Counted from the first letter of the stretch, positions 7,451 to 48,323 are shown. The stretch: DNA of 64,000 nucleotides from Spirochaetia bacterium (GCA_963677925.2 CAXXYH010000003.1:1536001-1600000), one strand, 5' to 3'. The notes: generated from the sequence alone by a model not told the origin. A program made the numbers and translations.

Positions 7451-7954
7451 ATGCGCAACCATGGAAAACTTTTAAAAATGTTAACGATGTTTGTGGTTCT
7501 TTTACTTACAGCCACAGCAACATTCGCCTCTAACGGCGACACCATAAACATCGGAGGAACTGTCCCTTTAATTCTTAACCTGACAGTCACCCCTGACGCT
7601 GCCGCGGACAATCTTCCGCTTACCACAACCGGTGCAGATACAGCAACAACCGAAGCCCTTGCCTCAGTTACCATTTCTACAAACAATACTGCGGGATGGG
7701 AACTGTGGATATTCTCGGTCAACGGCGGTTCAATCGACAATGATGACACTGACAGTATTAACTACACCCTGACTTATGCCGGAACAGGCGGTGTGGCAAC
7801 CACAGCTCCATCAACAGCCGGAGTCCTTTTCGGACAGGCCGCAGCCGCAACAACAGACACCGCTCAGGCTCTGAACATCACCTATACCCAGTCCGCCAGT
7901 CATCCTGCCGGTTACTACTCTGATCAGCTCACTATTGTACTGAGGGCTAAATAG
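7451..7954 (+). CDS. Chaperone-usher major pilin (non-classical type)
   Basis: GGAGG RBS, signal peptide, donor-strand-like DTINIGGTV, C-terminal PAGYYSDQLTIVL as in Csu/spore-coat-U/CfaB-like pilins; first gene before chaperone and usher. Confidence 0.8.
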   Translation: MRNHGKLLKMLTMFVVLLLTATATFASNGDTINIGGTVPLILNLTVTPDAAADNLPLTTTGADTATTEALASVTISTNNTAGWELWIFSVNGGSIDNDDTDSINYTLTYAGTGGVATTAPSTAGVLFGQAAAATTDTAQALNITYTQSASHPAGYYSDQLTIVLRAK

Positions 7955-7958
7955 ACTA

Positions 7959-8702: not shown

Positions 8703-8716
8703 AGACAGCGGAATTT

Positions 8717-11101
8717 ATGAAAAAAGGGAATAAATCCGGAAAAGCATTAATTTTCCCTCTTTACCTTGTATTCATCATACTTTTCCCCTGTCCTTTTCTC
8801 GGTGCGCAGGATGCAGACACTGTACCTGTACCGCTCTTTATTGACGATATATATGCCGGCGAGATTTCAGCCGCTATACTGCCCGATGAATCTGTTCAGC
8901 TCAGGCCTTCTGAACTGATAGCATATCTTAGAGATCTGCTTTCAGATGAAACCATACAAACCGCAGAAATGATCTTTCCGGCGGAAGGCTGGCTCAACCT
9001 CACCGATATGGGAGGACTTGGCGTAAGAATAGTTTTCAAATTTGAAGATCTAACCCTTCATGTTTACATACCAGCACATCTTCGCCGTGAGAATGTCATA
9101 TCTCTTACGGGAAAAGAAGAAACTCCCGCAGGTAAAGAAATAACAAAACAGGATTTCAGCGCCTTTTTCAATCTCGGGCTATGGAGCCGTATTATCTATG
9201 AAACCATAACATTCGACTACTCTGTAACTCCCGAGCTTGGAATGAATATTTATGACTGGATAGCTGAAGCCCGGGGAGGAGTAAGGAGCGGCTCGGAACC
9301 TTTTTTTCTTGATTATGCCAGGGTTATTCATGACTTCAGAGCCTTATCCTACACTCTGGAGATCGGCGATGTTTCCTGGCCTGTAACAGGGTTAACAGGC
9401 ATTTCAAATATAACCGGGGCCTCATTCCGGCGGAATATCCGTATGGATCCTGATTATGACGACAGCCTGCCCTACACTAAAGAGATCTTTCTTCGTGAAC
9501 CTTCAAGGGTTGAGATATACCTTAACGATATAAAAATAAAGGAAGCTGATTATCAGAGCGGAACCTACATCTTCAATGATTTCCAGCTGTCCCGCGGTAT
9601 TAACAGGATATCCATAAAATGGCAGGACAGTGAAGGTCCGCATACAGAGGAAATGATCATTCCATATGAAAACAGTCTTCTGAAAGCCGGAGAACTTGAT
9701 ATGGGTATCTCGGCAGGAATTCCTGACCGGAACATCGTTCTTCCGGTGGTTTCTTCCTATCAGTATGCCGGACTGACCGACAGCCTGACCATGGGACTGA
9801 CGGAGGGATATAATTCGGACAACTCAGAAATCAGTATTGCAGCGGACTTTCTGTATTCTAGTAACTTCGGTACATTCAGGCTGTACCCGGAATGGGGTAT
9901 GATCTTCGGCGGAGGAATGAAAACTGCAGTGGAGCTTGGATACCAGTATCTGAATACCGGAAATGATTACTACTGGAATTTCGGAACAACAACAGGTTAC
10001 CGTTCCGACGCCATTCTGTATGCGCCTGAGACAGTTTCCTCGTTCTACTCTGATAATTATACAACACTACTGTTCCCGGGAGGCTTCAGCCTTACTCCGA
10101 GGTTTTTCTGGGAATACCGGATTGAAGAAGAAAAAAATATATTTAAACTCAGAGGCTCTTTCAAGAAAAGTATACGAGGCGGAAGTTCAATTTCTGCGAC
10201 TGTAGGGGTAGAATGGGATGACGGTCCGGCGTTTTCCGGTACCGTAAGCTTTTCTTCATCATTTCCTGAAGTTAACCAGAACCTCTACCTTCTGGAGAAT
10301 CTTGAAACACAGAAACTATCAGCCTACTGGAATAAATACGCATCGGATGCAGCAAGCGACTATACGCTGAATGTTTCAGCTGAGATACCTATCGAACTTG
10401 ATGAAAGACTTTCTCTGGGAGCCAGAGCCGGATATATACACAGTCTGTTCAACGGTTATGTATCGCATGATTTTGATACTATCATCGCGGCCGAAGAGAC
10501 CAGCAACTCAACTTCAATCTCTGCAGAGAGCGGAATAGTTTACACAGGCGGATACCTTGCTCTCACCGCACCGGTTCGGGATTCATTCATTATCATTGCA
10601 CCATCGGAGCAGTTCAGAGACAATATCCTTGATGTAAACCCCGGCACATCATCAAATATCACCGTAAGTACTTCACCCGGTGTTCTCTCCGGAGTTAATT
10701 CCTATTCCGTCAATAAGATAAATATTGAGGCCCAGGAGCTGATCCCCGGAATGGATGACAGAAATATGATGTATCATTTCACTCCTTCTTATAAATCGGC
10801 TGCAGTCATCTACCCTGAGATAGTCATAAGAGTTTACACAGGAGGCTATATCACAGATGAGGAAGGTACAGTGCTGGGGATGAAGCCAGGGCTTTTAACA
10901 GCAGAAACGTCAGAAGGAGAGCCTGTGACTGTTGAATTCTTTACCGACAAGAAGGGCTATTTCGAGGCTTATAATCTTGAACCCGGAAGGTATATACTTA
11001 AACTGGCCGGATTTGAGAATACACAAACAATTGAGATTAAAGAATCTGAAACCGGATACTATGATTCCGGAACTATTGTAATTAAGGGCAAGGGCAGATG
11101 A
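8717..11101 (+). CDS. Fimbrial outer-membrane usher
   Basis: Signal peptide; FSAFFNL, LEIGDV, plug-like PSRVEIYLND...FQLSRGINRISI, SLLKAGELDMGISAG, YAGLTDSLT; C-terminal FFTDKKGYFEAYNLEPGRY; 794 aa fits usher size. Confidence 0.82.
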   Translation: MKKGNKSGKALIFPLYLVFIILFPCPFLGAQDADTVPVPLFIDDIYAGEISAAILPDESVQLRPSELIAYLRDLLSDETIQTAEMIFPAEGWLNLTDMGGLGVRIVFKFEDLTLHVYIPAHLRRENVISLTGKEETPAGKEITKQDFSAFFNLGLWSRIIYETITFDYSVTPELGMNIYDWIAEARGGVRSGSEPFFLDYARVIHDFRALSYTLEIGDVSWPVTGLTGISNITGASFRRNIRMDPDYDDSLPYTKEIFLREPSRVEIYLNDIKIKEADYQSGTYIFNDFQLSRGINRISIKWQDSEGPHTEEMIIPYENSLLKAGELDMGISAGIPDRNIVLPVVSSYQYAGLTDSLTMGLTEGYNSDNSEISIAADFLYSSNFGTFRLYPEWGMIFGGGMKTAVELGYQYLNTGNDYYWNFGTTTGYRSDAILYAPETVSSFYSDNYTTLLFPGGFSLTPRFFWEYRIEEEKNIFKLRGSFKKSIRGGSSISATVGVEWDDGPAFSGTVSFSSSFPEVNQNLYLLENLETQKLSAYWNKYASDAASDYTLNVSAEIPIELDERLSLGARAGYIHSLFNGYVSHDFDTIIAAEETSNSTSISAESGIVYTGGYLALTAPVRDSFIIIAPSEQFRDNILDVNPGTSSNITVSTSPGVLSGVNSYSVNKINIEAQELIPGMDDRNMMYHFTPSYKSAAVIYPEIVIRVYTGGYITDEEGTVLGMKPGLLTAETSEGEPVTVEFFTDKKGYFEAYNLEPGRYILKLAGFENTQTIEIKESETGYYDSGTIVIKGKGR

Positions 11102-12048
11102 TAAAAAGAAGAAGCCTTTCAGTTTTTATTTTTCTGATAACCATAACGGCAGGGACCCCGGCCGCTGATATATTCGGGTTCAATGCACCTCCGGGAGGTG
11201 TATATTTAAACTGTTCATTTGAGCAGAATTCCGAAGTTAAGGTGGATATCACCGTTGAGCATGAGGGCGTCGGCATCAGCTCCTGGTTTATTGCTGCTGA
11301 TGAAGGAGCATCATCATCCTATGAACCAAGGCAGCTGGTTTCAGGGGGCAATACCCTTAATTATCAGATCTATAAGTCTGCGTCTCCATCCACAGAAATA
11401 ATCAAAGCGCCTCCCGAGGTACTGGCACTTTCGAATGTTGTCACTTCGGCCGATTTCTCCTCCGCGGCGGCAACTACTGAAACTCAGACATTCAGCATCT
11501 ATTTTTATGCATCTTCGGGGCAGTTTATTCCGGCCGGAACATATACTGATACAATAACCCTCTATCTTTACGAGGGCGACTATTCCAACGCCGGAACGCA
11601 TGTGCCGGTCGACAGCGTCAGCATTACCGTGAACGGGCGAATGGCCAGACTGATTGATATCTACAGTATACGTGAACCAGGAATCAGGTTCATGGATCTT
11701 ACAATAAGCCAGAGCAATAAGCTTATTGCAACAGTAAACGAACGAAGCAACTCGGCTACCGGATATACGGTTTCGGTTACAAGCTATAACCTTGAAAATG
11801 ATTCAGGCGGAGCGACCGCTCCCTTTTTCCTTCACAGCAGCGGAACCGGAAGCCTGGGATACAGCCTGACCTACGACGGAACACTGGTAGGCGGATGGTC
11901 ATCCGGCTCCGCTTTCATTACCGATTCAAATGCAACAACCCTTCCTGAATGGCTGTCAAAAGAACTTAGAATAAGCTACTCAGGAAGCCCTGTCCTGCCG
12001 GCAGGTGATTACGAAGATATTCTGACACTGACAATCAGTGCAAAATAA
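11098..12048 (+). CDS. Two-domain tip pilin/adhesin (CsuE-like architecture)
   Basis: ATGA overlap with usher stop; two domains ending PAGTYTDTITL and PAGDYEDILTLTISAK; second domain aligns by eye with the major pilin. Confidence 0.78.
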   Translation: MIKRRSLSVFIFLITITAGTPAADIFGFNAPPGGVYLNCSFEQNSEVKVDITVEHEGVGISSWFIAADEGASSSYEPRQLVSGGNTLNYQIYKSASPSTEIIKAPPEVLALSNVVTSADFSSAAATTETQTFSIYFYASSGQFIPAGTYTDTITLYLYEGDYSNAGTHVPVDSVSITVNGRMARLIDIYSIREPGIRFMDLTISQSNKLIATVNERSNSATGYTVSVTSYNLENDSGGATAPFFLHSSGTGSLGYSLTYDGTLVGGWSSGSAFITDSNATTLPEWLSKELRISYSGSPVLPAGDYEDILTLTISAK

Positions 12049-20957: not shown

Positions 20958-22340
20958 TCAAAGCATAAATTCTATTGTAAAAACAGCGCCGCCGTCATTA
21001 CGGTATTCAAGGTTGCCGCCCAGCTGTTCTGCAAGCATCCTGATAAGCATTAGTCCGAATCCGGTAGAATCCCCGGATTCTCCATCCGGAAGGCCCCGGC
21101 CGTTATCCCTTACGACAAGGCATGCAGTTTCATCTTTACTGCGGCTTACTGAAATTTCTATTATTTTCTCCCCTGACATATTCTTAAAGGCATATTTCAT
21201 GCAGTTTGTAACAAGTTCATTTATTATGATTCCAAGATGAAAAAGTTTACCGGGAGAAAGCTGAAAATCATCTATATGAGTCCGGATATCAACATCCCGG
21301 CTCTGATAAAAGACTTCAGTAATATCACCAATAAGATTGCTAAGATACACCGCAGACGAGGTCTCACGGAATTCTTCCGACTCAAAGAGACTTTCGTATA
21401 AAACCCGCAGGCTGCCTACTCTGCCTGCGGCATCCATAAGGGCAGTTTTCTCACCTTCATTAGCAGCTTCATCGCCCTGAAGCCTTAAAAGGCTTTCCAC
21501 CCAGGCCATATTATTTTTAATGCGGTGATGAACCTCACGAAGAATGAGGTCCTTTTCTTTTAACAGCGTCTCAATTTTGACCTCAGCCGCCTTACGGTCG
21601 GTTATATCTTCGATCTTTGCCATAATTCCGGTTATATTTCCATCGATTCTGATAGGGTTCAGACTGTATTCAAGGTAATGCTCACTTCCCCATTTACTTT
21701 GGTAGAGCATTGAATTTGACACAGGATCTTTAGTCTCTATCGTACGCCTGAGATCGCCGGAAAAGCCAGAGCTGACAAGCAGGGGAAAAGTAAGCAGATT
21801 AATTTTTTTAGTTTCTTCAATTGAAGGAGATCCGAGAAGTTCAAGCATTTTTTTATTGATTTCAATAATCTTTCCGTCAAGATTCGAGTAGACTATACCG
21901 GAAACAGAATGATCAAAAAGACTTCTGTACATCTGCTCGCTTTCTGCGAGCGCCTTCTCGGTTCTCCTGCTCTCGGTAATATCCTGAAGAACACCTACAA
22001 CCCTGTTTTGTTCCGGATCGAAATCGGCTACCGAGTGGATTACGGCAATACGGCCGTCATTCGGTCTCTTAATACTGAACTCAATATCATAGGTATCCGA
22101 GGCTCCGCTGACCAGATTTCTCATTTCGTCCTGAAGACTCTTCCTGTCTTCGGGAACAGAGATACTGCGAATCATTTCAAGTGAGAAATCCTCACCGGAA
22201 ATTCCGTATATATTCTGAGCTTCCTTTGATGCTGTAAATCTGGCGGAGGCCACATGGTAGACCCATGAGCCAACCCTGGCAAGCCGTTGTACCTTCTCAA
22301 AATAATCCGATGATCTCTCAAAGCGGTGATCATTATCCAT
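20958..22340 (-). CDS. PAS-PAS HisKA_2-type sensor histidine kinase
   Basis: Two PAS/PAC segments, EVHHRIKNN, NELVTNCMKYAF, DNGRG, GFGL; start likely MDNDH (ORF track 22358). Confidence 0.88.
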   Translation of the reverse strand: MDNDHRFERSSDYFEKVQRLARVGSWVYHVASARFTASKEAQNIYGISGEDFSLEMIRSISVPEDRKSLQDEMRNLVSGASDTYDIEFSIKRPNDGRIAVIHSVADFDPEQNRVVGVLQDITESRRTEKALAESEQMYRSLFDHSVSGIVYSNLDGKIIEINKKMLELLGSPSIEETKKINLLTFPLLVSSGFSGDLRRTIETKDPVSNSMLYQSKWGSEHYLEYSLNPIRIDGNITGIMAKIEDITDRKAAEVKIETLLKEKDLILREVHHRIKNNMAWVESLLRLQGDEAANEGEKTALMDAAGRVGSLRVLYESLFESEEFRETSSAVYLSNLIGDITEVFYQSRDVDIRTHIDDFQLSPGKLFHLGIIINELVTNCMKYAFKNMSGEKIIEISVSRSKDETACLVVRDNGRGLPDGESGDSTGFGLMLIRMLAEQLGGNLEYRNDGGAVFTIEFML

Positions 22341-22396
22341 CAGGGTTCCCTGTATCAATTATAATCCACATGGAATCTAAAAACAATAAGAGCCTC

Positions 22397-25300
22397 TTAA
22401 TAGTAATAATTCAGATACCGGACGATATTATACAGGAAGGGTATTCCATAATAATATCCGGGAACCTTATCATAAGCCCAATAGACAAATCTGTTCTGCC
22501 TTACAACTGTGTAATAATTCGAATAATCCGGATCATCAGCATAGAAATACGTTCCGTTTGTGCCTGACGAGTTGGAATTATACAAAGACCAGCGATGTGC
22601 AATACTGTAGGGATATCCTGTAGTTGAAGTAAACATAAGAGCGTCATAATCCTCAGTGTAAAGATAGCTGTCATACAGAGGTTTATAATACATATACCGG
22701 TGCCATATATAATCATATGCGGAAGAATAAGGCTTTATGTTGGCATACTGGGTATCACCCTTGGAGTACGCGTAGTCAAGATCAGTAGGAGCGACCCCGG
22801 AACCTATTGAGTTAAGGCCCAGACTTGTCCAGTTGTTTACAAGAGTCTGAAAGAAACGCCAGCCGTAGTAGTGCATTCCCATTACTCCGTGACCGCTGTA
22901 GGCAACATTTTTTGCCCTTGTTGTACTTGCATAGAGATTGGCAGCTGACGGAGTTATTATTATCGGGTCGCCGTAGATTACAGTTTCATCTACACCGTCA
23001 TCCTTAAAGGTAGCTGGAACCTCATCTTCGGGAATCATTGTCACAGTAAACTCAGTCCATGTGTACGAACCGTTCATAAAGACGTAGCTCGGGTTTGCTG
23101 ACACCCAGTCGGTTGTTATCCTGCTCTTAAGCAGGCTTGCAAGATCTGTATCATCAGGATCATCATCGTCGTATATAATAGTCATATCCGAGCTGTACCC
23201 CAGTGAGTAACTGCTGTAATTTGTGTAGCCTATTTCAGGGTTGTAAACACGGATAAACAGATAATACGGAACTCCCTCGGTATAATAGTCGCTGTAGCTG
23301 GCAGTACTTACTGTACTCCCCTTTGTATATTTTGTTCCGGTCGGACTTGTTGCATAGTAAACATAATATGTATTGCTGCTTGATGTATCATTTCCATACT
23401 CTTCATAGTGAGTTCTGATATAACCGTTTTTAGTGTAGCCCTTGTAGGAATTATTCATCACCGGTGTTCCGTAGAAGATTGCATCACTTACCTCGGTATA
23501 GTGTGCAGCCTCCTGGGTGACGGAATTTCTTGAGTAAACCCCGGCATAATCAGAGAACTGAACAATAACCTTCTTTGAACCGTAACCGCTGTATCCGCTG
23601 GCAGTACTCAGGCTCCAGGACATGCTGGAGGAGGCTGAATACCATCCTGACCAGGAGGAACCGCCGTCATTGCTGATACGCATATAGTTTGCGCCTGAGT
23701 ATGAACTGTTCAGCGTAGCCGAGGTACTGGATGCCACTGTGCTTCCGCTGTTTATACTGAATGAAGAAACCGTCGGCTCGGCGGTATCAAGGACTATGGA
23801 ATCATAGCGGCTGATAGACACATTGCCTGCGTAATCAATAAGTTCGCAGTAGACATACTTTGTACCGTCTGTAAGCGTTACATTACCGTTCGTAAAATTC
23901 CAGCTGCTCAGTGTTGAATTGTAGACATAGGTAAGGGTGCTTCCTCCGGAGTTCCAGAACCGCATGTATCTGATATCATTTCCGGTGTAGGTTTGAGAAT
24001 TGGAACCGCTGCCTGTAATGGCTATATCAACATACTGACTTACTGTATACGAAGTACTGTTGACGGCATTTGTGGACCTATTGCTCAATAAAATTGAACT
24101 TAGGGTCGGAGCAGTCGTATCTATTTCAAGAGCCCATGTCGCAGAGTTAGACCAGTTTCCTGCAGTATCGCTTTCCTGAACATAAAAGGTATACACACCT
24201 TCGGAGTTGGATGTGTTTATTGCTATTGATGTAGTATAGGTCCAGCTTGATTCATCAAAGCTCCACCGGTAGCTGCCGTTTCCGCCTCCGCCGGATGACC
24301 AGCGAAAATACGGGGTTGTATCATTTGAAAGGTGGTAGCCGTTGCTTGTTACGCTGTATCCGGTGCTGTAGGTGTACATTACAGGTGCGCCCGGAGCTGT
24401 TGCATCTATCTGAACCGTACTTGAGGCCACCTTGCCAACCCATGAGGTGTCGCTGATGTTGTATTCTTCAACTTCGATCGTATACACATCATCATCCAGA
24501 GGGCTTCCTCCATCATAGGTTGAAAAGTCGATCATCAGAGTCGTTACATCATCAGCCAGTGTTGTCCAGCCGGTCACTTCCGCGCTGGAACTGTCAAGAA
24601 GCCTGTACCGGTAACGTTCCGTTGCAGGATTTCCAAGTCCGGTTGACCAGTTCCATGTAACCTGCCTGGCGGTACCGTAGCTGTTTCGCAGATACTCTCC
24701 CTCCCGGTTGAGTGCGGGTTCAGAGGTAAAGTCGGTGTCTATCCAGATTGCCCGGCTGCCCGATGCCGACCAGTTTCCTGCGGCATCTCTTTCCTGTACA
24801 TACATTGTATATTCATATTCGTCGCTCAGAGCTGACGATGGATAGCCGGGATAATTCGTACCGGAGGGCTCAAAGCTGAGCGATGTTGTTTCCGTCCAGT
24901 CCACAATTACTGACGAGCTGCCGTAATATGCACCGCCGTCGCTTTCCCAGTACCTGCCGACTCTCTCAAGGCGGTATCGGAATGTACCGTTTCCATTGCC
25001 GGTTCCGTACCATGACCATGTGGGAGCAACATTAGGAGTATGCGAGATCCCTGATATTACTGGGGAGGAAGGAGGAGTTGTATCCCATTCAAAGCTGACA
25101 TATCCATCAGCGCTGTTGCCTGCCATATCGGTTACAGTCAGTTTCATTTCATACTGTCCGTCTTCGGATCCATCATCAGCAGCGGATACTGTCGGTATCA
25201 GCTGATCTGCGTTTGTTATTTCAAGTTTATCCGGAGAATCGGGGTCATCCTTATTCTCAACCCATAGGTAGGAAGCTATTCCGCTTCCTGCGGAACCCGG

Positions 25301-28288
25301 ATCATCAGGGTCGTCAGCGGTTTTCTGATCATAGGCCCGGCCGTCACCGGTATCGTTGTCATTATAGTATTTGATTGTAAAGGATGAATTCTTTGGTGAG
25401 ATATCCTGCAGTTTTTCAATTACAGGAGGAAGGGTATCGATCCAGAACTCAACCATCACGCTGCCGCTTCTGTTTGCCCTGTTTCCGGCATTGTCCCATG
25501 CTGTAACATAGAAATACACAGGACCGTCATTATCACCAAGGTTGGCAGGAGTCGGTGCTGAAATATAGGGAATATCCGAACGCATATAGTTTTTATTCTC
25601 GTAGCTTGCAGTATTATCCCAATCTACTTCGTCATCATCCCAGTGCGGATACCATCCGCCGACGCCATAGGCTACACCGGGATCCGTATTCGGATCGAGG
25701 GTCTGATAGTAAGGAATAGTGGTGTAAAAATCAGCTCCGTCTGCAGCAGCCCACACTATGTAGGGTATAGCTGATGAGGTATATGCCATTACAGCTGATG
25801 CTGATGTATTGAGCACAGTGTCATCCTGATTATAGGCTGTCAGGGTTCCGACATCGGCCGGATCAACTGTATCCCATACAAAATCAACTATGTTATAGCT
25901 TGAGTTTCCGGCATTATCGGTTGCGGTTACCTTTATCTCGTAGCTGCCGTCTTCACTTCCGTCCGAGGCTCCGGCCTTGATATAGGGCTGCTCAACGCTG
26001 CTGTCCCCGGTAGTTCCGGCACTGTCTGAATAAAAGGTCAGCGTCCCCGGACCGCTGAGCTGTTCCCATAGGTATGAAGCAATTCCGCTAGGAACCTGGT
26101 AGGCTTCAGAATCTACCGGGTGGGTATCTGTGATAGTTACTGTCTGCCGGATTATCGAGTTTGTTTCAAGGTAATCTGTATCTGAAAAAGATACAGAGGG
26201 CTCAGTGTAGTCAAGGATGACAACAGCGTAAACATCATTGGCACCTTCGTCCTGAAGTCCCGACAGATTACCAACATAATCCTTAACTTCAGCATAAACG
26301 TAGTACTGCCCTTCACCTGATGACAGAGCTACCTCGGGTTTAAGAGAGGACCAGGCCTCCCATGAGCCGGAATCGGAGGAAGGCATATTCAGAGCACTGG
26401 CGGCTTCCACCGACAGCCACATGTACTGAAGCCCGGACTGCAAGTCCTCGGCATCTATTACAACATTAACGGTTTCTCCGGAGTTGTTTGAGTACCCAGT
26501 ACCGTTATCGATCTGCAGACCGTTCAAAACAGGTGCAGTTGTATCAAGGCTGACTTTAAGTCTGCCCGGGGTTTCCGATTCATTATTGGCATAATCGACG
26601 AAGCGGTAGTAAATGTAGTGATCGCCGTCATTCGCCTGCAGTTCCCATCCTGCGGAAGCATATGCGGTATTGTAGCTCATGTAGTCTATACCGCCGCCCG
26701 TAGTTCCTCCCTCGGAGTACAGTTTCCAGGCGGCATCGCCTTCAAAAGTCGGGAAACCGGCGCCTATATTGTCGCCCCAGATCTTCACCGCACGGACACC
26801 GTTATAATCATCCTCGGCCTTAATCTCAAGATCAAAGGTAGCGGATGCTGTAGCATTGACCGAAGGTGAATCAAGATTCAGCACTATCACGCCCTCAGGC
26901 GCGGTATTATCCTCAAAGGCTCCGTTTGCAAAGCTGTAGGTGTAATCTGAACCTATTGCATTTCCTGCCACATCGGAAACAGTTCCGCTTATAAAGACAT
27001 TGTATTCAGTGCTCTGCTCCAGAGTATAGGATTCACCGCCCAGTTCGAATTCGGTAAACTCAATTCCGGACTTGTCGTCAATGTATTCATAAACCGAGGT
27101 TGAGATCTTCTGGATGCCCTTGGTAACATAGACAGTAGTGCTGTCTATTGTTGTTGTATCCATCTCTTCAGAGAAAACTACTTTAACATAGGCCTTTGTT
27201 CTGTTTCCGGTTGAATCAGGAACAGGGTTTGAAAGATCAAAGTCCACCTGAGGAGGTGTGAAATCATAAACAATGGAACTGGAAGTTTCCCCGGACTCAT
27301 TAAGAGCCGTGTCACGAACCTGCAGATAGAGGGTTTCAGTTTCATTTGTATTCACAGAAAGAGAGTAATCACTGATGCTCGTACTGCCGCCGTCCAGTGT
27401 CAGCCAGTCGCTCCAGCTGCCGCCTTCGGTTCTAATCCGGTAGTCGCCCATGCCGCTTCCTGTCTCTTCATCAACCCCCAGAATATCTATCGATATTTCA
27501 CTGTTGCGGGTTCCGGCTTTTCCGCCTTCAAGCGAGAACTGTGCAATTTCGGGCATGGTTGTATCAAGACCAATTGAATCGGAACCGTAGCCTGAAGATT
27601 CAAGCCCGGAACCGTCTTTCAGTTTCACATATACGGTCTTCTGGCCGTCGCCTTCTGGAAAGGTTATATCAAATGATGAGCTCCAGGTGATCCATCCTGA
27701 ATCAGAGAAGTTTCCGTTTGTTGAAATATTCATCTGGGCTATTCCGAAGTTATCAGTCGCATCAACCTCAACCGTAGCCGTAAGCTGGTTTGTCCAGGAA
27801 TCTCCGTTATTTATTGTGACTCCGGAAATAGCAGGCCTTACTGTGTCGCCCTCTATTCCCGTGGTAAAAGACCAAGTATAGACCTCGGATATAAGATTAC
27901 CGTCCAAATCCTTGATTCCGTTAATAGTGACTTCGTATTCTGTGCCGACTTCCAGTTCCGAATTTGGAATGAATGTAATGGTATCATTCTCAACTTTACG
28001 TGAACCGCTTATTGCGTTGCCGCCTGCATCTGTTACATAAAAACTTGCAGAAACTACTGTGCTGGAATCAATATACTTCGAGAAGGTCACAGATATCGTA
28101 CTCAGGTTAATAGGGACATCCTCAGTATCACGTTCCGGGTAGATTGAAACAACTTCCGGAGGGGAAATGGCCTTGTCCACATCCTCTTCAATATAGGCAA
28201 GCAGGGGATTTTTACAGCTGATAAAAACTGCGGATGCAGCAAGCAGCAGTACAGAAACAACTATCTTTATCATTGTAATTCTTTTCAC
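22397..28288 (-). CDS. Giant (~1960 aa) Ig-like repeat lipoprotein, probable surface adhesin/S-layer-like protein
   Basis: Lipobox LLLAASAVFISC; Big_5/SbsA-like N-terminal domain; many repeats ending D-x-AGN...DTT-x-P; Tyr/Ser-rich C-terminus; GTG start at 28288 after GAGGAG. Confidence 0.82.
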   Translation of the reverse strand: MKRITMIKIVVSVLLLAASAVFISCKNPLLAYIEEDVDKAISPPEVVSIYPERDTEDVPINLSTISVTFSKYIDSSTVVSASFYVTDAGGNAISGSRKVENDTITFIPNSELEVGTEYEVTINGIKDLDGNLISEVYTWSFTTGIEGDTVRPAISGVTINNGDSWTNQLTATVEVDATDNFGIAQMNISTNGNFSDSGWITWSSSFDITFPEGDGQKTVYVKLKDGSGLESSGYGSDSIGLDTTMPEIAQFSLEGGKAGTRNSEISIDILGVDEETGSGMGDYRIRTEGGSWSDWLTLDGGSTSISDYSLSVNTNETETLYLQVRDTALNESGETSSSIVYDFTPPQVDFDLSNPVPDSTGNRTKAYVKVVFSEEMDTTTIDSTTVYVTKGIQKISTSVYEYIDDKSGIEFTEFELGGESYTLEQSTEYNVFISGTVSDVAGNAIGSDYTYSFANGAFEDNTAPEGVIVLNLDSPSVNATASATFDLEIKAEDDYNGVRAVKIWGDNIGAGFPTFEGDAAWKLYSEGGTTGGGIDYMSYNTAYASAGWELQANDGDHYIYYRFVDYANNESETPGRLKVSLDTTAPVLNGLQIDNGTGYSNNSGETVNVVIDAEDLQSGLQYMWLSVEAASALNMPSSDSGSWEAWSSLKPEVALSSGEGQYYVYAEVKDYVGNLSGLQDEGANDVYAVVILDYTEPSVSFSDTDYLETNSIIRQTVTITDTHPVDSEAYQVPSGIASYLWEQLSGPGTLTFYSDSAGTTGDSSVEQPYIKAGASDGSEDGSYEIKVTATDNAGNSSYNIVDFVWDTVDPADVGTLTAYNQDDTVLNTSASAVMAYTSSAIPYIVWAAADGADFYTTIPYYQTLDPNTDPGVAYGVGGWYPHWDDDEVDWDNTASYENKNYMRSDIPYISAPTPANLGDNDGPVYFYVTAWDNAGNRANRSGSVMVEFWIDTLPPVIEKLQDISPKNSSFTIKYYNDNDTGDGRAYDQKTADDPDDPGSAGSGIASYLWVENKDDPDSPDKLEITNADQLIPTVSAADDGSEDGQYEMKLTVTDMAGNSADGYVSFEWDTTPPSSPVISGISHTPNVAPTWSWYGTGNGNGTFRYRLERVGRYWESDGGAYYGSSSVIVDWTETTSLSFEPSGTNYPGYPSSALSDEYEYTMYVQERDAAGNWSASGSRAIWIDTDFTSEPALNREGEYLRNSYGTARQVTWNWSTGLGNPATERYRYRLLDSSSAEVTGWTTLADDVTTLMIDFSTYDGGSPLDDDVYTIEVEEYNISDTSWVGKVASSTVQIDATAPGAPVMYTYSTGYSVTSNGYHLSNDTTPYFRWSSGGGGNGSYRWSFDESSWTYTTSIAINTSNSEGVYTFYVQESDTAGNWSNSATWALEIDTTAPTLSSILLSNRSTNAVNSTSYTVSQYVDIAITGSGSNSQTYTGNDIRYMRFWNSGGSTLTYVYNSTLSSWNFTNGNVTLTDGTKYVYCELIDYAGNVSISRYDSIVLDTAEPTVSSFSINSGSTVASSTSATLNSSYSGANYMRISNDGGSSWSGWYSASSSMSWSLSTASGYSGYGSKKVIVQFSDYAGVYSRNSVTQEAAHYTEVSDAIFYGTPVMNNSYKGYTKNGYIRTHYEEYGNDTSSSNTYYVYYATSPTGTKYTKGSTVSTASYSDYYTEGVPYYLFIRVYNPEIGYTNYSSYSLGYSSDMTIIYDDDDPDDTDLASLLKSRITTDWVSANPSYVFMNGSYTWTEFTVTMIPEDEVPATFKDDGVDETVIYGDPIIITPSAANLYASTTRAKNVAYSGHGVMGMHYYGWRFFQTLVNNWTSLGLNSIGSGVAPTDLDYAYSKGDTQYANIKPYSSAYDYIWHRYMYYKPLYDSYLYTEDYDALMFTSTTGYPYSIAHRWSLYNSNSSGTNGTYFYADDPDYSNYYTVVRQNRFVYWAYDKVPGYYYGIPFLYNIVRYLNYYY

Positions 28289-28292
28289 CTGC

Positions 28293-30392
28293 CTACTCCT
28301 CTTCTTCATCCCAGAATGTCCGCCCCTTATCCAGCGCCGCCGAAGCCCTGACTATCGAGCTGTTTGTATTTCCGATATAGGTATAATTCTCTGCAAGTGC
28401 GGCGTTAACCGAAGTAAGTTCGGCAAAGTCCGCCTGGGCTTCATCAAACTGCTCCAGTTCAAACTTGGTCCTTGCAAGTCCGGCCAGAACAAGAGAGCTT
28501 TCCGGTTTCAGGTTCTTTGCCTGCTCGTACATCGAAAGAGCCTTGTCATAGTCGCCTTTCAGAAAGTAAATATTCCCCAGGTTGAAGGGAGGATTGTATG
28601 CATTCCGGTCAAGCCGGATGGCAGCCTGAAGCTGCTCTTCCGCCTTATCAAAGAGTCCGTATTTTCCATACAGAACCCCCAGGCTGTTGCGAACAGCAGC
28701 AGAATCACGGCGGCTTATACGGTCCTTGTAATATTCGACCTTGCTTCTGATTTCCTGGGAGACAAAGGCATCCAGGCTCTGGTTATAGTTTTCAATGATG
28801 TTTTCTGCAGAAGGATAGATAAGGCCGATGCTGCTGCCTGTAAATCCAACCGGTTCAAACTCCTGCCATGCAACATGAATAGGAAAAAAGCCGGCGGAAT
28901 TCTTCTTTACTGCGTCGCGCCACTGCTTTGCTGCGGTATCGTAGGCCTTCAGAAAGCCCTGCTGAATAAGAGTTATTTCAAGCGGAACCCAGGCTTTGCC
29001 ATCCATGTATATGAAGTTGTCTGTATTGGCAAATTCCTTTTGAGCATCCTCCTCGGTCAGGTCAAGCGAGAAGGCCATGAAGATATGGCCCGGAATCGTA
29101 ATAAATGCCGTCTCAATTCCAACCGATTCCAGCAATGCCGCCATAAGAATGGACAGGTCATCACAGTCTCCGGCTCTGTAGGTGAGTGACTGGGAAGGGA
29201 ACTGCAGATAATCCAGAAACAGGGAATCCTGCGAGGCTTCAATATACGAAGACTGTGGATCAATTACATAGTTCATGCCGTAAATACGGAGGGCTTCAAA
29301 AACACCTATGGCGATGCGGAAGTTCAGGTTCAGCGGATTTTCACCAAGATCACGAATAAGCCCTGCTGTATTCTTAGAAAAGATAAGCACAGTAGGGTCT
29401 CTGGGAGTAACAAATGAGGCAGCCTTACGATCATCATCCCAGGTCATACTGTTGCGGTCAAGAATTCTTATAGTGTGAGGCTTCACATACGTAAAACGCT
29501 CCCCCAGATAGGTGTATTCAACCCTTATTTCAGCAGAAACCTTCGAGCTTTCAGTAAGATTGAGGATACGGTTTGTAAAAAGCGCATGAAGATCGACTTC
29601 AACAGCTTCATTTCTGGCAAGGGAATCTATACTTCTGCAGAGCATGGGCTGCTCCATGTACTCGCCTACATCGAGGTAAACATCAACATTGGTGATGGAA
29701 CTGGTTTCATTATTCTGCAGAACCATGGTTCCAAGTGAGTTGTTCTCATAATAGCTGTAAAAAACAGGAAAGACAGGGTCTGTTCTGAGTTCTGAAACAC
29801 CCAGCTTCTGACGTCCCGATTCAGGATTAAACCTTATTACACCGCCCAGCCAGGCGCTGACTCCCTGATAAAGATCAGTAAACTCATTAGCAGCCGAGTC
29901 CCAGCCGAGGTGATAGCGGTAGACACCGCCGAAGGTTGTAGCAAAGGTAGGAGAAACATCCCATACTATAGAAGCTTTGCCTCCGAAGTAGGGGTTGAAT
30001 GCGGAATTTCCGTCCTGGTAATAGGCATATGTGCCGCCGACATCCGGACCGGCCTGAAGACTGATAACGTCTGCAATCCTCAGGTCCATCCCGATACCGG
30101 TACCAACCGACCCGAGGGTCAGTATCTGAGCCTGACTCGGTTCCAGCGCAATGCTTGAGTTCCCTTCCAGGTACATGAATGAAACATTCGGAAAGATATA
30201 CTGGCCGGTAATACCAACTGAGCCTCCGATAAGATAGGCGGCATCATCGACAAAAAGGGAACTGCGTTCCCCTACCGGTATCTCAACTGACGGCTTGATG
30301 TGCAGGGAAAAGTCTTCAACCGACTGAGCGGATACAGTCAAAACGGCGGCAGCAAACAGAGTTATTATGCAAACGGTTTTTCTTTTCAACAT
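28293..30392 (-). CDS. Exported protein: putative small beta-barrel + transglutaminase-like domain + TPR repeats
   Basis: Signal peptide; ~8 amphipathic beta-strands in the first ~190 aa; GDCDDLSILMAALLESVG...PGHIF...WVPLE; C-terminal TPRs (NSLGVLY, FNLGNIYFLKGDYDKA); ATG 30392 after AGGAG. Confidence 0.78.
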   Translation of the reverse strand: MLKRKTVCIITLFAAAVLTVSAQSVEDFSLHIKPSVEIPVGERSSLFVDDAAYLIGGSVGITGQYIFPNVSFMYLEGNSSIALEPSQAQILTLGSVGTGIGMDLRIADVISLQAGPDVGGTYAYYQDGNSAFNPYFGGKASIVWDVSPTFATTFGGVYRYHLGWDSAANEFTDLYQGVSAWLGGVIRFNPESGRQKLGVSELRTDPVFPVFYSYYENNSLGTMVLQNNETSSITNVDVYLDVGEYMEQPMLCRSIDSLARNEAVEVDLHALFTNRILNLTESSKVSAEIRVEYTYLGERFTYVKPHTIRILDRNSMTWDDDRKAASFVTPRDPTVLIFSKNTAGLIRDLGENPLNLNFRIAIGVFEALRIYGMNYVIDPQSSYIEASQDSLFLDYLQFPSQSLTYRAGDCDDLSILMAALLESVGIETAFITIPGHIFMAFSLDLTEEDAQKEFANTDNFIYMDGKAWVPLEITLIQQGFLKAYDTAAKQWRDAVKKNSAGFFPIHVAWQEFEPVGFTGSSIGLIYPSAENIIENYNQSLDAFVSQEIRSKVEYYKDRISRRDSAAVRNSLGVLYGKYGLFDKAEEQLQAAIRLDRNAYNPPFNLGNIYFLKGDYDKALSMYEQAKNLKPESSLVLAGLARTKFELEQFDEAQADFAELTSVNAALAENYTYIGNTNSSIVRASAALDKGRTFWDEEEE

Positions 30393-30569
30393 TTCAGTTC
30401 TCCTGATAAAGCTGTACACGTTTACATAATTTACATTCAGTTTACATTATAAATATATTACAATTTTACTAGTTTATAAACAAAAAGATCAAATTACTGG
30501 TATTAATTTCAATACCAGAGCCTCAATTTCCGGCAGATTCATTTTATCGGCCGTTGGCCGAATTTACCC

Positions 30570-34356: not shown

Positions 34357-35697
34357 CTAACCAGCAGGGAAAACTATCCTGGTAACGAAAAATCCATCAT
34401 CATAAAACTGTTCAATCGTTCCGTTAATCTGGCCCGTCAGTTTATGAATCAGTTTCAGACCCAGGGAATCTCCTTTCTGAAAATCAAACGATTCCGGAAG
34501 CCCCGGACCGTTATCCCCTACTTCAAGAACAATACCTTCATTTTTTCTGTAAAGAGATACTCTAATCCGGTTTTCCCTGTTCGCTGAGAATGCATATTTC
34601 ATACTGTTCGTAATAAGTTCATTCACAATAAGCCCCAGATTGATACCGAGATCAACGCCCAGCTCAATATCGGCCAAATTATAGTCGGCTTTTAAATTCT
34701 CAAAGGAATTGCCCTCCGGCTTAAAAGTCTGCATAACATGATCTGTCAGTTCTTTGATATATTCTGCGGAATGGATGATATTAGTGCTCTCAGTCTTGTA
34801 AAGCTTCTCATGTATTATGGATATGCTGACAATACGGTTGATCAGATCAGTAAAGACTGTCTTCTGTTCCGGATCCAGGCAGTGCAGGGCCTCAAGATTC
34901 AGAATGCCGATTATCATCTGCAGGTTGTTTTTGACCCTGTGATGCGTTTCCTTCAGCAGCATGTCCCTGGCTTCAAGAGCTTCTTTTAAATCGGTAATAT
35001 CGATATTCATTCCGAGAATTCCAAGAATATGCTCACCATCCTTGATAGGAGCAACTATGTTTCTGAAAAACCGCTTTTTACCGCGGATATGATAATTTAT
35101 CTCACCTTCATATGTCTCGCCATTAAGTGCAGCTGTGGTTGTTTCCATCCACAGCTCAACTATCCCTTCATGATCGGTTACTTCTGTCGGAAGCCTGCCG
35201 TGGACATCGCCCCAAAGAGCCCGGCTTATCGAATTCTGCATGTATGTACGATTATTAACGTCGTTGATCCAGAAGTCAAAGGGAAGACTTTCAAGCGTTG
35301 TCTTGAGCATAATCTCGCTTTTACGAAGACTCTCCTCCATTTCCTTGCGGAAAGATTTATTTTTAACAAGAAGCCAGTAAATATGACGGTTGTTATCTGT
35401 GGTACAGTGAATGCTGATCTCAGCCACTCTGGGAGTTCCCGCTTTCTGATTCAATTCACCATCAATTACCCTGGTGCTTCTGCATCTGGAGGCATCCTTG
35501 ATAAATTTCCTTATTTCATCAGAACTTTTATCATCAAAAAGCAGATTCAGATCAGCGCCTATCACTTCTTTTTCACTTAGCCCGGAAAGCCCGTATACAG
35601 CATGATTTACAGACAGGATCTGAGCTTGTCGGTCAAGGAGGATAAAGCCGTTGTCACAGCCGGATAGAAAATCTTTGTACATCGACTCAGGAAGCAT
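34357..35697 (-). CDS. PAS-PAS HisKA_2-type sensor histidine kinase
   Basis: ETHHRVKNNLQ, NELITNSMKYAF, DNGPG, SLGL. Confidence 0.88.
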   Translation of the reverse strand: MLPESMYKDFLSGCDNGFILLDRQAQILSVNHAVYGLSGLSEKEVIGADLNLLFDDKSSDEIRKFIKDASRCRSTRVIDGELNQKAGTPRVAEISIHCTTDNNRHIYWLLVKNKSFRKEMEESLRKSEIMLKTTLESLPFDFWINDVNNRTYMQNSISRALWGDVHGRLPTEVTDHEGIVELWMETTTAALNGETYEGEINYHIRGKKRFFRNIVAPIKDGEHILGILGMNIDITDLKEALEARDMLLKETHHRVKNNLQMIIGILNLEALHCLDPEQKTVFTDLINRIVSISIIHEKLYKTESTNIIHSAEYIKELTDHVMQTFKPEGNSFENLKADYNLADIELGVDLGINLGLIVNELITNSMKYAFSANRENRIRVSLYRKNEGIVLEVGDNGPGLPESFDFQKGDSLGLKLIHKLTGQINGTIEQFYDDGFFVTRIVFPAG

Positions 35698-35754: not shown

Positions 35755-36447
35755 TTAGAGTTCATCATTTGCAGAGACAGCAATTGAACTTGAAATCTCC
35801 AGATTTCCGTTTCGTATTCTCAGCTGATCAATAAACTCCTGTTCCTCGTCTGTTTCCTTCAGGTCAATTTCATACTGCAGTCTCAGCATACTGCCGAGAT
35901 TCGTTGTTTTTACAGAAAGCAGTTTGTATTCACGGGTATATCTGTCAAAAAGATCAGTGAATACATTGTTATACGCAAGATCTTCAGGTATGGATATTCT
36001 GAGAGAGCGTCTGGAACTGCTTCGAAACAGCTCTCCGAACGGAATTGATTCAAGCAGAAGCATTACAGAGGCAACAGCAGCCGTAAAAATCAGAGCACGC
36101 AGCAACGTTCCCAGTCCGCAGGTCAGACCGATAGCCATCGCAATAAAAACCGCCAGGATATCACGGCCCGATCCCGGTACCGAACGGAACCTTACCAGGG
36201 AAAAAGCCCCGGCAACCGCGACTCCCGCTCCGATCGAACCGTTAACCATCATTATTACCACAGCTACTACTGCCGGAAGTACCGCAAGAGTTACGGCAAA
36301 CGATTTTGATACCGAATTCTTCAGCTGGTAGATCAGTGAGAAAATTAAACCGAGTATAATTGCCGCACTTATTTTAACTGCATATGCTCCAAGAGACAGG
36401 GTTTCAACCGTCCCGTTATCTGTAAGTATTTGTGTAATTGTGTTCAT
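35755..36447 (-). CDS. DUF4956 membrane protein
   Basis: GVAVAGAFSLVRFRS motif; adjacent to a VTC-domain gene. Confidence 0.85.
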   Translation of the reverse strand: MNTITQILTDNGTVETLSLGAYAVKISAAIILGLIFSLIYQLKNSVSKSFAVTLAVLPAVVAVVIMMVNGSIGAGVAVAGAFSLVRFRSVPGSGRDILAVFIAMAIGLTCGLGTLLRALIFTAAVASVMLLLESIPFGELFRSSSRRSLRISIPEDLAYNNVFTDLFDRYTREYKLLSVKTTNLGSMLRLQYEIDLKETDEEQEFIDQLRIRNGNLEISSSIAVSANDEL

Positions 36448-36450
36448 ATT

Positions 36451-37170
36451 CTATCCTGCCATCCGTCTTTCAGGTGCGGACACAAGCCTGGAATAGGCCT
36501 GCCCGTACTTTGAAAACGATGTTTTATATATTCTGTTTTCTGCAAGAGCACCTGAAAGCCACAACGGCATTGCCGCTCCGCATTTTATTTCCATAAGAGA
36601 ATCATCCCCGCTTAAAATTCTTGTCCCGAAAAGGGATTCAGATTCAAGATGGATGTCAGAAGTCCTCCAGAAGATATCATCATCAAAGGTAATTCTGATG
36701 CTGTTATCCGGAACTCCCTGCCAGGCCTCACGCCTGTATCCTATATACATAGCCGGGATCAGGTTTTCATAAAAATCAATAAAATACCGGAGTTCCCGCT
36801 CAACCTGACCGCTGATATCGCTGCAGCTGTTTTTTTTCAGAACAAAGGCATCAGCTTCACAGGGCGTCATCACTGTCCGTCTCTTATAAACGGTGCCCAG
36901 ATATTTTTTCTTCAGCTCAACAAAGACTTTCCCGTCCGCTGATACCGGGCCGTAAGAGCGGATTCTCAGCTTTTCCTTGTATGACGGCTGTTCCATGCTG
37001 CTTCTGATAAGGCGGTAATCAGGCGTATCCAAATAAATATTGCAGATTCTGTATCTGTGAAACCTGTCAGGCTTTATATATTCCTGTATCTGATCCAGAA
37101 ACCTTCTTTTCTGCTCTGCATCAATAAGATATTTTTTTTCGTTCCGTTCAAAGGAATCCATCCTGCTCAT
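36451..37170 (-). CDS. VTC-domain (polyphosphate polymerase-like, CYTH fold) protein
   Basis: RNEKKY, IYLDT, KEKLRIRSY, FVELKKK, RITFD, MEIK, SFSKY. Confidence 0.88.
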   Translation of the reverse strand: MSRMDSFERNEKKYLIDAEQKRRFLDQIQEYIKPDRFHRYRICNIYLDTPDYRLIRSSMEQPSYKEKLRIRSYGPVSADGKVFVELKKKYLGTVYKRRTVMTPCEADAFVLKKNSCSDISGQVERELRYFIDFYENLIPAMYIGYRREAWQGVPDNSIRITFDDDIFWRTSDIHLESESLFGTRILSGDDSLMEIKCGAAMPLWLSGALAENRIYKTSFSKYGQAYSRLVSAPERRMAG

Positions 37171-37195
37171 ACTGCGCCCCCTGTCTCCGAATCAA

Positions 37196-38326
37196 TTACC
37201 AGCGTCGACCCCCGTGAGCTCCTCCGCGGCCAAAACTCTGTACAGTAATTTCTGTAACAGCCGAACCGTTTACCTTCACATCACCTCCGGTCATTTCTGC
37301 TGTGCCGTCGGCATCAAAGGCTGAGCGGGCTGTAACATCAATATCCCCGCCACGTATATACAAATCACCGTTGGAATCAAAGGCATCGGTATCACCTGCC
37401 GCCATTGAAACAGAAATATCGCCTCCGTTTACTTCAATCATTACGGTTCCGTTTGATTTTCGCGCTGCATTTATACCGTCATCGGTTGCATAGATATCAA
37501 TATCACCGCCGTTTATCTGAATGTGAGTGGCTTCAAGGCCTTCCTGACTTGTTTTAATATCAAGAGTTCCGCCGTCTACCTGAACCAGACTTGTTCCCCG
37601 GACAGCATCATCCCCTGCCGAGATATCAAGACTGCCGCCCTGGATATAGATGTATCCGGTTGATTTATCCGAATCTTCAGCATGAAGAGCATCCTTTCCG
37701 GATTCAAGAACAATATTCCCGTCATAGATTCGGATTGAGTCGTTGGCTTCCAGAGCATCCTCATTCGCTTTTACATACAGTGATGAACCGGTAATTTTCA
37801 GATCATCCTTTGTACTTATTCCGTTGCCTGCGGCCGATATTACCTCAAGACTGCCGGTACCGTTAATGACAAGATCGGCCCTGGAAAAAACCGCAGCATC
37901 AAGATTCGTTGAGCCGTCGGCCTTATATCTGCCTGTTACTTCAATTGAATTATCATCTGATGCTGCGGTCAAAAAGACTTTATCTGCCGATTTAACATAT
38001 ATTGCAGGGGCGCTGCTGTTTTTGACATTGAATCCGTCAAGGACAAGCTGAACCTTGGCATCATCCCCGGCATCAACAACGACAGTGCTGTCAGCATATG
38101 TTCCGCTCAGGATGTACACGCCCTCATCCGCTATTATAGCCTGGCTTCTGCTGCTGAGCCCTATAATGGCTGCATCACTCAGATCTGCAGACTGCTGCAG
38201 ATCACGCGATGTAAAAAGATCTGAACCGCTTAGAACTCCTGCTGAAACAGACCCTGCCGCAAAGCAGCTGCCTAGACTCATTGTCATAAGAGCAAGTGCC
38301 CCGCTTATTTTCATAAACTTATTCAT
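37196..38326 (-). CDS. Cthe_2159 (DUF4353) beta-helix carbohydrate-binding domain protein
   Basis: GVYILSG, VQLVLDG, APAIYVKSADK, TDDGINAA, GDTDAFDSNG; usual partner of VTC/DUF4956. Confidence 0.85.
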   Translation of the reverse strand: MNKFMKISGALALMTMSLGSCFAAGSVSAGVLSGSDLFTSRDLQQSADLSDAAIIGLSSRSQAIIADEGVYILSGTYADSTVVVDAGDDAKVQLVLDGFNVKNSSAPAIYVKSADKVFLTAASDDNSIEVTGRYKADGSTNLDAAVFSRADLVINGTGSLEVISAAGNGISTKDDLKITGSSLYVKANEDALEANDSIRIYDGNIVLESGKDALHAEDSDKSTGYIYIQGGSLDISAGDDAVRGTSLVQVDGGTLDIKTSQEGLEATHIQINGGDIDIYATDDGINAARKSNGTVMIEVNGGDISVSMAAGDTDAFDSNGDLYIRGGDIDVTARSAFDADGTAEMTGGDVKVNGSAVTEITVQSFGRGGAHGGRRW

Positions 38327-48268: not shown

Positions 48269-48323
48269 TTTTCCCCCCGTCAAATTTCTTTATTATCAGG
48301 ATGATTCGAATATAATCCATTAA

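Follow-up and report, generated by a model that had tools for sequence, protein, structure and literature searches.

A predicted outer-membrane barrel protein with a transglutaminase-like core is paired with tether-bearing lipoproteins in Spirochaetota

Introduction

The Lap (LapG/LapA) and Dvh (DvhG/DvhA) systems, in which a transglutaminase-like cysteine protease of the periplasm releases a giant adhesin, are the closest described counterparts of the gene pair reported here. LapG-type proteases recognize a targeting helix ahead of the cleavage site and depend on acidic neighbors of the Cys for calcium, DvhG is a membrane-anchored protease, and residues D316 and E318 of its D-C-E motif form a predicted calcium-binding site that is needed for activity (PMC13090378). 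The pair lies on the minus strand at positions 22397..30392 of a 64,000-nt stretch of DNA from a Spirochaetia bacterium (GCA_963677925.2, CAXXYH010000003.1:1536001-1600000); this whole stretch is called the window. Gene 1 (28293..30392) encodes a 699-aa precursor that consists of a signal peptide, a predicted 8-stranded barrel, a beta-sandwich, a transglutaminase-like core and tetratricopeptide repeats (TPRs), and gene 2 (22397..28288) encodes a 1963-aa lipoprotein precursor. In outline the pair is like Lap/Dvh, but it lacks the marks of membership in the Lap family. A first-pass annotation of the window had proposed that gene 1 is an outer-membrane-anchored enzyme acting on the neighboring lipoprotein.

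To our knowledge, the ways in which envelope lipoproteins of spirochaetes are sorted, anchored and released are largely unknown. Here, we describe that genes 1 and 2 are a dedicated, co-inherited module that is conserved well beyond this locus, and this pairing is our main new result. The module is real, widespread and undescribed; full-text searches, whose reach left out most subscription journals, brought up no description of this architecture.

Results

A lipoprotein gene adjoins the barrel-type gene in related loci

Related loci were surveyed with one genome per species. The pattern was fitted by 598 stretches, 549 of which were confirmed, and the best 80, representing 79 loci, were analysed. 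Gene 1 is of the barrel type in 68 loci, 62 of them with enough downstream sequence to judge, and barrel-less in 11. A lipoprotein gene adjoins gene 1 in 59 of the 62 assessable barrel-type loci. In 54 of them a script found it on the same strand, starting where gene 1 ends; in L020, L047 and L079 the downstream lipoprotein was rejected by the filter of the script and seen by eye, and in L044 and L073 the partner lies directly upstream of gene 1. No partner lipoprotein was found in three assessable loci, L032, in which gene 1 is interrupted, L040 and L055. Gaps or overlaps between gene 1 and its partner are mostly within ~25 nt. The pairing is kept down to ~35% identity of gene 1, and only 5 of 55 orthologous locus pairs have a flanking gene in common when two genes on each side are compared. 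None of the 11 barrel-less relatives is accompanied by a lipoprotein with the tether described below; in two of these loci downstream open reading frames (ORFs) pass the lipobox filter, but without the tether motif.

The two genes also appear to be inherited together. Full-length orthologues of gene 2 lie directly after orthologues of gene 1 in L002-L009, L011, L012 and L017-L019. A tree of gene 1 was calculated with 41 rows, leaving out loci in which the gene 1 ORF is not 660-760 aa long or the partner is shorter than 350 aa. The clade of the window comprises 16 rows (100 in the SH-like approximate likelihood ratio test, SH-aLRT), and its partner, wherever complete, is the giant orthologue of 1739-1963 aa. 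The distribution of partner types on the tree is clustered, with 9 changes compared to a mean of 17.5 after shuffling, and not one of 200 shuffles gave a value as low. Several gene 1/partner pairs can be present in one genome, for example L021/L054, L031/L044/L075 and L069/L077. In L010 (4271-9797) and L013 (4609-10166) the giant partner is split into at least two ORFs, with N-terminal ORFs of 658 and 672 aa and the C-terminal domain kilobases further on, which could result from frameshifts or assembly errors.

The bodies of distant partners are unrelated. Big_5/Big_13/Big_12 domains, InlB-type repeats, RCC1 propellers, a right-handed beta-helix and FG-GAP repeats are found, as well as chitobiase-type domains, an FGE-sulfatase domain, cadherin-like domains and Fn3. 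The partners share a short tether helix and neither size nor immunoglobulin (Ig) repeats, and the link is not specific to giant Ig proteins. The gene linkage supposed earlier for this locus is therefore true of an adjoining lipoprotein, but not of giant Ig proteins in particular.

The partners share an acidic N-terminal tether

The element common to the partner lipoproteins of the family is an acidic amphipathic helix motif, the tether, which covers residues 26-44 of gene 2 (28157..28213, minus strand). Its consensus, running on directly from the lipidated Cys, is C-[PEK]-N-P-L-L-D-x-I-E-E-E-V-E-x-A. With 18 close orthologues as training set, a position matrix was tested on 30 distant partners against 64 other lipoprotein-like ORFs taken from the same loci and the window. 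The distant partners score far above these 64 (Mann-Whitney p 1.9e-8), the three top-scoring "other" lipoproteins being partners misclassified by position, and lipoprotein-like ORFs of the loci that are not partners lack the motif. The helical hydrophobic moment of the tether is 0.51, compared to 0.36 in controls (p 5e-9), whereas there is no difference at the beta-strand angle (p 0.09); the net charge is -2.2, compared to -0.35 in controls. Packing within the molecule is unlikely to be the reason why the helix is conserved, because partners differ in their first folded domain. The core of the tether, I-E-E-[ED]-V-[ED], resembles acidic peptides bound by clamp-type TPRs, presumably ligands of the EEVD kind, and the fold matches of gene 1 include two complexes of a TPR with a peptide, 3kd7 and 4cgv; we regard this as a lead only.

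Two unrelated envelope genes that do nothing more than share an operon would also be found side by side. This explanation is very improbable, since adjacency persists to ~35% gene 1 identity while the flanks change, the tether motif is confined to the adjacent lipoproteins, and the partner is lost where the barrel is missing.

Gene 1 combines a predicted outer-membrane barrel with a transglutaminase-like core

The AlphaFold2 model of gene 1 was built on 39 homologues and has a mean predicted local distance difference test (pLDDT) value of 86.8 and a predicted template modelling score (pTM) of 0.72. The signal peptide comprises residues 1-21 (30330..30392; this and all following coordinates of gene 1 are on the minus strand) and ends with VS before A-Q-S, where the sequence suggests the cleavage site; the model has a helix at residues 2-21, with low confidence at 21-24. 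Residues 28-187 (29832..30311) are modelled as a beta-barrel with exactly eight long strands according to DSSP (28-39, 56-66, 73-86, 90-105, 110-125, 130-145, 150-165 and 170-187), and the hydrophobicity of this region alternates with a period of two (z = 5.4 compared to shuffles). With Foldseek, the barrel matched NspA (1p4t, E 2.2e-5, TM 0.77 on the target, root-mean-square deviation 2.9 Å) and the transmembrane domain of OmpA (1bxw, E 9.2e-5), and a search of BFVD with the whole model had Opacity/OMP barrels among the matches. At the level of profiles, PF13505 (OMP_b-brl) does not match the window copy but 2 of 22 homologues (best E 2.9e-6), and the only hits of the barrel profile in the PDB, Opa60 (E 0.06) and NspA (E 1.3), are both weak. 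The N terminus of gene 1 is thus predicted with high confidence to be an 8-stranded outer-membrane barrel of the OmpA/NspA class. A linker of ~9 residues connects it to a beta-sandwich (residues 197-312, 29457..29804; model strands 197-310) to which Pfam scans assigned no family.

The following alpha/beta core, residues 313-511 (28860..29456), is transglutaminase-like by profile matches and model, and is the most conserved part of the protein. Transglut_core (PF01841) matches the window copy with 22.0-22.9 bits, just under the curated cutoff of 23, and all 22 homologues at E <= 0.1 (best E 4.6e-5); DUF553 matches 20 of the 22. Precomputed Pfam assignments place PF01841 on 4 of 120 listed homologues. 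Three residues never vary, either in the 39 aligned homologues or in the 150 representatives, which come from clusters at 50% identity and are mutually less than 50% identical. These are Cys410 in the motif GDCDD (codon 29163..29165), the candidate nucleophile and first residue of helix 410-423, His436 in PGH (29085..29087), the first residue of strand 436-442, and Glu472 in WVPLE (28977..28979), the candidate third residue of the triad, directly after strand 466-471; all three codons were checked. In the model, the Cys at the N terminus of a helix and the His and Glu at the start and end of strands are in the canonical arrangement of the transglutaminase fold. Acidic residues flank the Cys (D409-C410-D411-D412). 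In 54 full-length proteins the mean column identity is 0.57-0.58 in the core, 0.39 in the TPRs and 0.29 in the barrel, with peaks of ~0.8 at residues 316-330 and 406-435. Judged from the profiles and the model, both the predicted fold and the predicted triad geometry are well supported.

The fold family includes true transglutaminases, and a short address tag on variable passengers together with a dedicated, adjacent Cys-His enzyme is the pattern of known sorting systems. Gene 1 might therefore be a sorting transpeptidase or cross-linker. Following the mechanisms of sortase and of PorU, the sortase of type IX secretion, Cys410 would form an acyl-enzyme and transfer the client to an acceptor, be it peptidoglycan, a lipid or glycan or another protein, or else a Gln-Lys isopeptide would be made; either way, the lipoprotein would be fixed covalently in the envelope. 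However, neither Gln nor Lys is conserved in the tether (K is present in 34 of 50 partners and Q in 12 of 50, at no fixed position), no scan revealed similarity to the sortase or PorU families, and the gene neighborhood does not suggest an acceptor. This makes a transpeptidase unlikely.

The C-terminal TPRs and the wider family

Residues 529-687 (28332..28808) are helical and contain about four TPRs, as seen from TPR_1 (E 7.4e-14), PDB matches to consensus TPRs and the helices of the model. The motifs span approximately residues 565-687, and Asn569, Asn604 and Asn607 are invariant in the 39 aligned homologues. A PDB sequence search with the whole protein returned TPR matches only. The signal peptide, the ~8 amphipathic strands of a membrane barrel and the TPRs had all been read from the sequence in the first-pass annotation and are corroborated by the analyses above. 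An intact-looking Cys-His-acid set had been noted there as well; the set is invariant and, in the model, sits on canonical elements, but the acid of PLE is Glu and not the usual Asp.

The invariant Asn residues are of the groove type, and they direct attention to a function in binding. Gene 1 could be a stoichiometric dock or chaperone that binds the tether one-to-one, via the TPR groove or the enzyme-like cleft, and holds, orients or stabilizes the partner without cutting it; the task of the Cys/His/Glu site would then be to bind a ligand, to regulate or to carry out a single-turnover step. In line with such a complex, each partner has its own gene 1 paralogue, a genome can contain several pairs, and the genes overlap or nearly abut; moreover, the acidic tether core I-E-E-[ED]-V recalls the peptides of clamp-type TPRs, to which the 3kd7 and 4cgv matches give a lead. 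Pure binding modules usually lose catalytic-type residues, however, whereas Cys, His and Glu are kept in every representative and the active-site region is more conserved than the TPRs (0.58 vs 0.39), as in a working catalytic site. We consider a dock possible, but not probable.

A role in export has to be considered for any barrel gene that adjoins the gene of its putative substrate. As a helper, gene 1 would assist in flipping or translocating the partner to the cell surface, and the tether would be its export signal, much like the acidic signal by which lipoproteins of Bacteroidota are exported. The bodies of the partners are of kinds typical for surface proteins (Ig-like, InlB-type, beta-helix, cadherin-like, Fn3), the acidic tag is N-terminal and next to the lipid anchor, and there is a weak match to TPR_Slam (E 0.0038; 18.1 bits, below the cutoff of 35.2). 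On the other hand, the modelled barrel with its eight strands and short loops would offer no lumen for a polypeptide, profile scans found no DUF560, Omp85 or POTRA domain, and the invariant catalytic-type site would be left unexplained. Export assistance is therefore quite unlikely.

Among 8000 candidates scored, 1760 homologues of gene 1 were found at E <= 0.001. The 120 listed homologues are named only "tetratricopeptide repeat protein" or "hypothetical" and come nearly all from Spirochaetota assemblies. With the enzyme module alone, 3892 representative clusters reached E <= 0.001. In the 11 barrel-less loci, WD40, repeat or other N-termini follow an ordinary signal peptide; here the enzyme-TPR module is located behind WD40 propellers, TPR arrays or Lys/Glu/Pro-rich repeats (alt class, L025-L070). 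Some relatives have kept the barrel and carry in addition a long linker rich in Pro, Ala and Glu, plus a beta-rich domain of ~170 aa at the C terminus. Variant architectures are represented by P0143, P0184, P0145, P0151, P0152, P0194, P0235 and P0269. That the long relatives are fusions of gene 1 and gene 2 was considered and rejected, because the extra part is this linker with the small beta-rich domain and no partner body. By inspection of the sequence, L043 has an apparent papain-like motif at its N terminus.

Gene 2 is a predicted giant lipoprotein

The signal peptide and lipobox of gene 2 comprise residues 1-25 (...AVFIS-C25; 28214..28288, minus strand, as for all features of gene 2). All 17 orthologues have kept Cys25, and by this sequence gene 2 is a predicted bacterial lipoprotein with a lipobox of the relaxed type. 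Behind the tether extends an Ig-like body (23165..28156) in which Pfam and Foldseek revealed two Big_5, three Big_13 and a PKD-like domain, the last domain being Fn3-like; a C-terminal piece of 374 aa was modelled separately (pLDDT 78.3), and the Fn3-like Foldseek matches are in its first ~100 residues. The remainder of this piece is modelled as an alpha/beta domain of ~255 aa (22400..23164) that is rich in Tyr. It has no Pfam or PDB sequence match and no convincing fold match; the C-terminal domain of Nir2 was rejected because its TM was only 0.25-0.29. Only six relatives of the domain were found, all within the same lipoprotein family.

Layout and surroundings of the pair

The pair consists of two minus-strand ORFs, 28293..30419 for gene 1 followed by 22397..28309 for gene 2. 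The most likely start of gene 1 is ATG 30392, which has AGGAGA ahead of it and gives 699 aa. For gene 2, whose ORF is backed by the full-length orthologues behind gene 1 orthologues, the candidate start GTG 28288 is located 4 nt past the TAG of gene 1 and 7 nt past GAGGAG (28296..28301, minus strand), a candidate ribosome-binding site that lies within the last two Glu codons of gene 1 and whose function is suggested by its sequence. Alternatively, translation could start at the in-frame ATG 28309, in overlap with gene 1; signal peptide and lipobox Cys25 are retained with either start. The GTG fits, since the gap between gene 1 and partner is 0-14 nt in orthologous loci. The tail of gene 1, W-x-E-E(-E), is conserved and overlaps the partner start in the window (28293-28309) and in many other loci. 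Many partners begin with M-G-R, the ATG arising in the region of the Trp codon, with overlaps of 4, 13 or 16 nt, and the conservation of the tail may therefore be partly imposed by the overlapping partner start.

A consensus scan gave promoter-like sites upstream of gene 1 but no terminator-like site, either between genes 1 and 2 or in the gap from gene 2 to the kinase gene (20958-22358); as evidence this is weak in both directions. Between 20.5 and 31 kb, Rfam had zero matches at E <= 1, that is, no riboswitch. A PADLOC scan for defence systems had no match. Besides the pair, 48 ORFs of the window were scanned; their products are ordinary proteins of metabolism, transport and signalling, and no LapD-like or type I secretion genes are among them. 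The first-pass annotation was right on this last point, as it was in describing a two-gene unit with a 4-nt gap and a putative ribosome-binding site in the end of the upstream gene, and a giant Ig-repeat lipoprotein as its second product.

Four HisKA_2-type histidine kinases, two of them with PAS domains, are encoded at 20958-22358, 34357-35697, 52398-53600 and 55505-57298, with no adjacent receiver gene. The first, on the same strand as gene 2 and 38 nt downstream of it, is not conserved beside the pair in other loci. A cluster of four genes on the plus strand (7451-12048) resembles an archaic chaperone-usher pilus operon, which is unusual in a spirochaete; it encodes a 167-aa ORF without Pfam match, a 247-aa PapD_N chaperone (E 8.4e-7), a usher-sized ORF of 794 aa, also without Pfam match, and a 316-aa SCPU-domain protein (E 2.3e-14). 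On the minus strand (35755-38326), genes for DUF4956, VTC-domain and Cthe_2159 carbohydrate-binding proteins stand in a row and may be a polyphosphate-related membrane module. In the region 47310-48715, an E1_dh ORF (47310-48029) covers only profile positions 69-300 of 300, and the 686 bases upstream contain no ORF of at least 120 aa; this may be due to a mis-called start, a frameshift or a truncation.

Discussion

How might the two products work together? We propose that the enzyme is kept by its barrel at the inner face of the outer membrane, where it docks on, and processes, the membrane-proximal tether of the partner. This reading is drawn by analogy, and we would give it a probability of about 40%. 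Gene 1 would be exported and its N-terminal 8-stranded barrel inserted into the outer membrane. In OmpA-type barrels with eight strands both ends face the periplasm, and with the same topology the rest of gene 1 would hang in the periplasm. The short linker of ~9 residues would keep the beta-sandwich and the transglutaminase-fold core directly under the membrane, with the TPRs next. The first ~15 residues after the lipidated Cys of the partner, the acidic amphipathic helix, would be the address that gene 1 recognizes. This linker geometry, which places the module under the inner leaflet, where the tether would lie, and the association of partner with barrel both suggest the tether as the docking site. 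Probably aided by the TPR groove, the enzyme module (Cys410/His436/Glu472) would dock on the tether and process it. If the logic of LapG/DvhG applies, the likeliest processing is cleavage, by which the Ig-repeat protein might be matured or freed from its lipid anchor.

Several observations weigh against this proposal. Each lipoprotein gene has a single enzyme gene, the stop codon of one and the start codon of the other often overlapping, and this one-to-one arrangement suggests a stoichiometric complex, which fits at least as well as an enzyme that turns over. No residue resembling a cleavage site is conserved across all tethers, and a [T/A/P]AAG motif is found nowhere in the whole sequence of gene 2. 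The third residue of the triad is Glu, where Asp is usual in the transglutaminase-like fold. The profile Peptidase_C93, which we take to be the name of the transglutaminase-like cysteine proteases of bacteria, the BTLCP family, matched neither the window protein nor 22 homologues in Pfam scans, and the best PDB sequence alignment to LapG (4u65_E, E 0.48) is non-significant. Fold searches with the whole model of gene 1 returned TPR and barrel matches only, so the assignment of the transglutaminase fold depends on profile matches just below the Pfam cutoff. The interpretation put forward in the first-pass annotation is partly supported. Its general idea of an outer-membrane-anchored enzyme acting on the neighboring lipoprotein fits all the evidence; a protease or cross-linking activity, direct contact between the two products and a role of gene 2 as a surface-exposed adhesin are putative.

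It is tempting to go a step further and to speculate that the module is an unrecognized lipoprotein-sorting system of Spirochaetota. An acidic-helix tag would be read one-to-one by the adjacent barrel/enzyme/TPR protein and the client would be processed covalently, by release or by sortase-like transfer, which would decide the fate of surface-type proteins with interchangeable bodies. This extension is tentative, and we would rather doubt it than assume it.

Whichever reading holds, the present label "tetratricopeptide repeat protein" hides both the enzyme and the pairing. The module is a concrete handle on lipoprotein handling in spirochaetes, as it offers a large uncharacterized family, a tag that predicts the client and a single candidate catalytic Cys. 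Should the client be cut or transferred by the enzyme, the LapG type of proteolytic control over giant surface proteins would be extended to lipoproteins and to a new phylum, with parts different from those of Lap and no cyclic di-GMP receptor. If it only docks, the pair would represent a new type of association in which an outer-membrane protein is bound to a lipoprotein.

Among curated families, only Prometheus ProA (NF058533) gives a significant match to the enzyme module, in its N-terminal DUF4011 region. Residues 220-497 of gene 1 align to positions 12-291 of the 1903-position profile with an E value of 5.6e-15 and a score of 53.9 bits, the cutoff being 1500. Atlas look-alikes of the module, obtained via homologue P0020, carry Transglut_core, DUF4011 or DUF553, and some are from Fidelibacterota/Fibrobacterota. 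ProA is a cytoplasmic defence protein of the nuclease/helicase type (PMC13700489). A role of gene 1 in defence was rejected, because a single domain is shared and PADLOC had no match.

With OmpA-type proteins gene 1 has in common the signal peptide, the 8-stranded barrel and the soluble C-terminal part behind it, but this part consists of the sandwich, the transglutaminase-like core and the TPRs and is not the peptidoglycan-binding domain OmpA_C. Like Slam (type XI) and TpsB/TpsA, the pair has a barrel protein, in Slam also with TPRs, encoded beside its cargo, and a shared recognition element on varied bodies. In contrast to these systems, the barrel of gene 1 is N-terminal and has eight strands, there is no DUF560 or Omp85/POTRA, the shared element is an N-terminal tether, and an enzyme-like module is present.

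The likeness to Lap and Dvh goes furthest. As in these systems (PMC13090378, PMC4359373), the pair has a transglutaminase-like enzyme, here predicted to face the periplasm, with a Cys-His-acid set and acids beside the Cys, and its gene lies beside that of a giant repeat protein with a helix in the N-terminal, membrane-proximal segment. D409-C410-D411-D412 of gene 1 resembles the D-C-E of DvhG (PMC13090378), the third residue of the triad here being Glu. The earlier expectation that the mechanism would differ from Lap agrees with what we found: a BTLCP match, an AAG site, a LapD/DvhD receptor, type I secretion genes and a riboswitch are all missing from the sequence scanned here. Gene 1 itself is different in being anchored by an outer-membrane barrel, in carrying the sandwich and the TPRs, and in having Glu for Asp. 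Finally, the candidate substrate is a lipoprotein, compared to an adhesin secreted by a type I or type Vb system, and enzyme and substrate genes are paired one-to-one, in many paralogous pairs.

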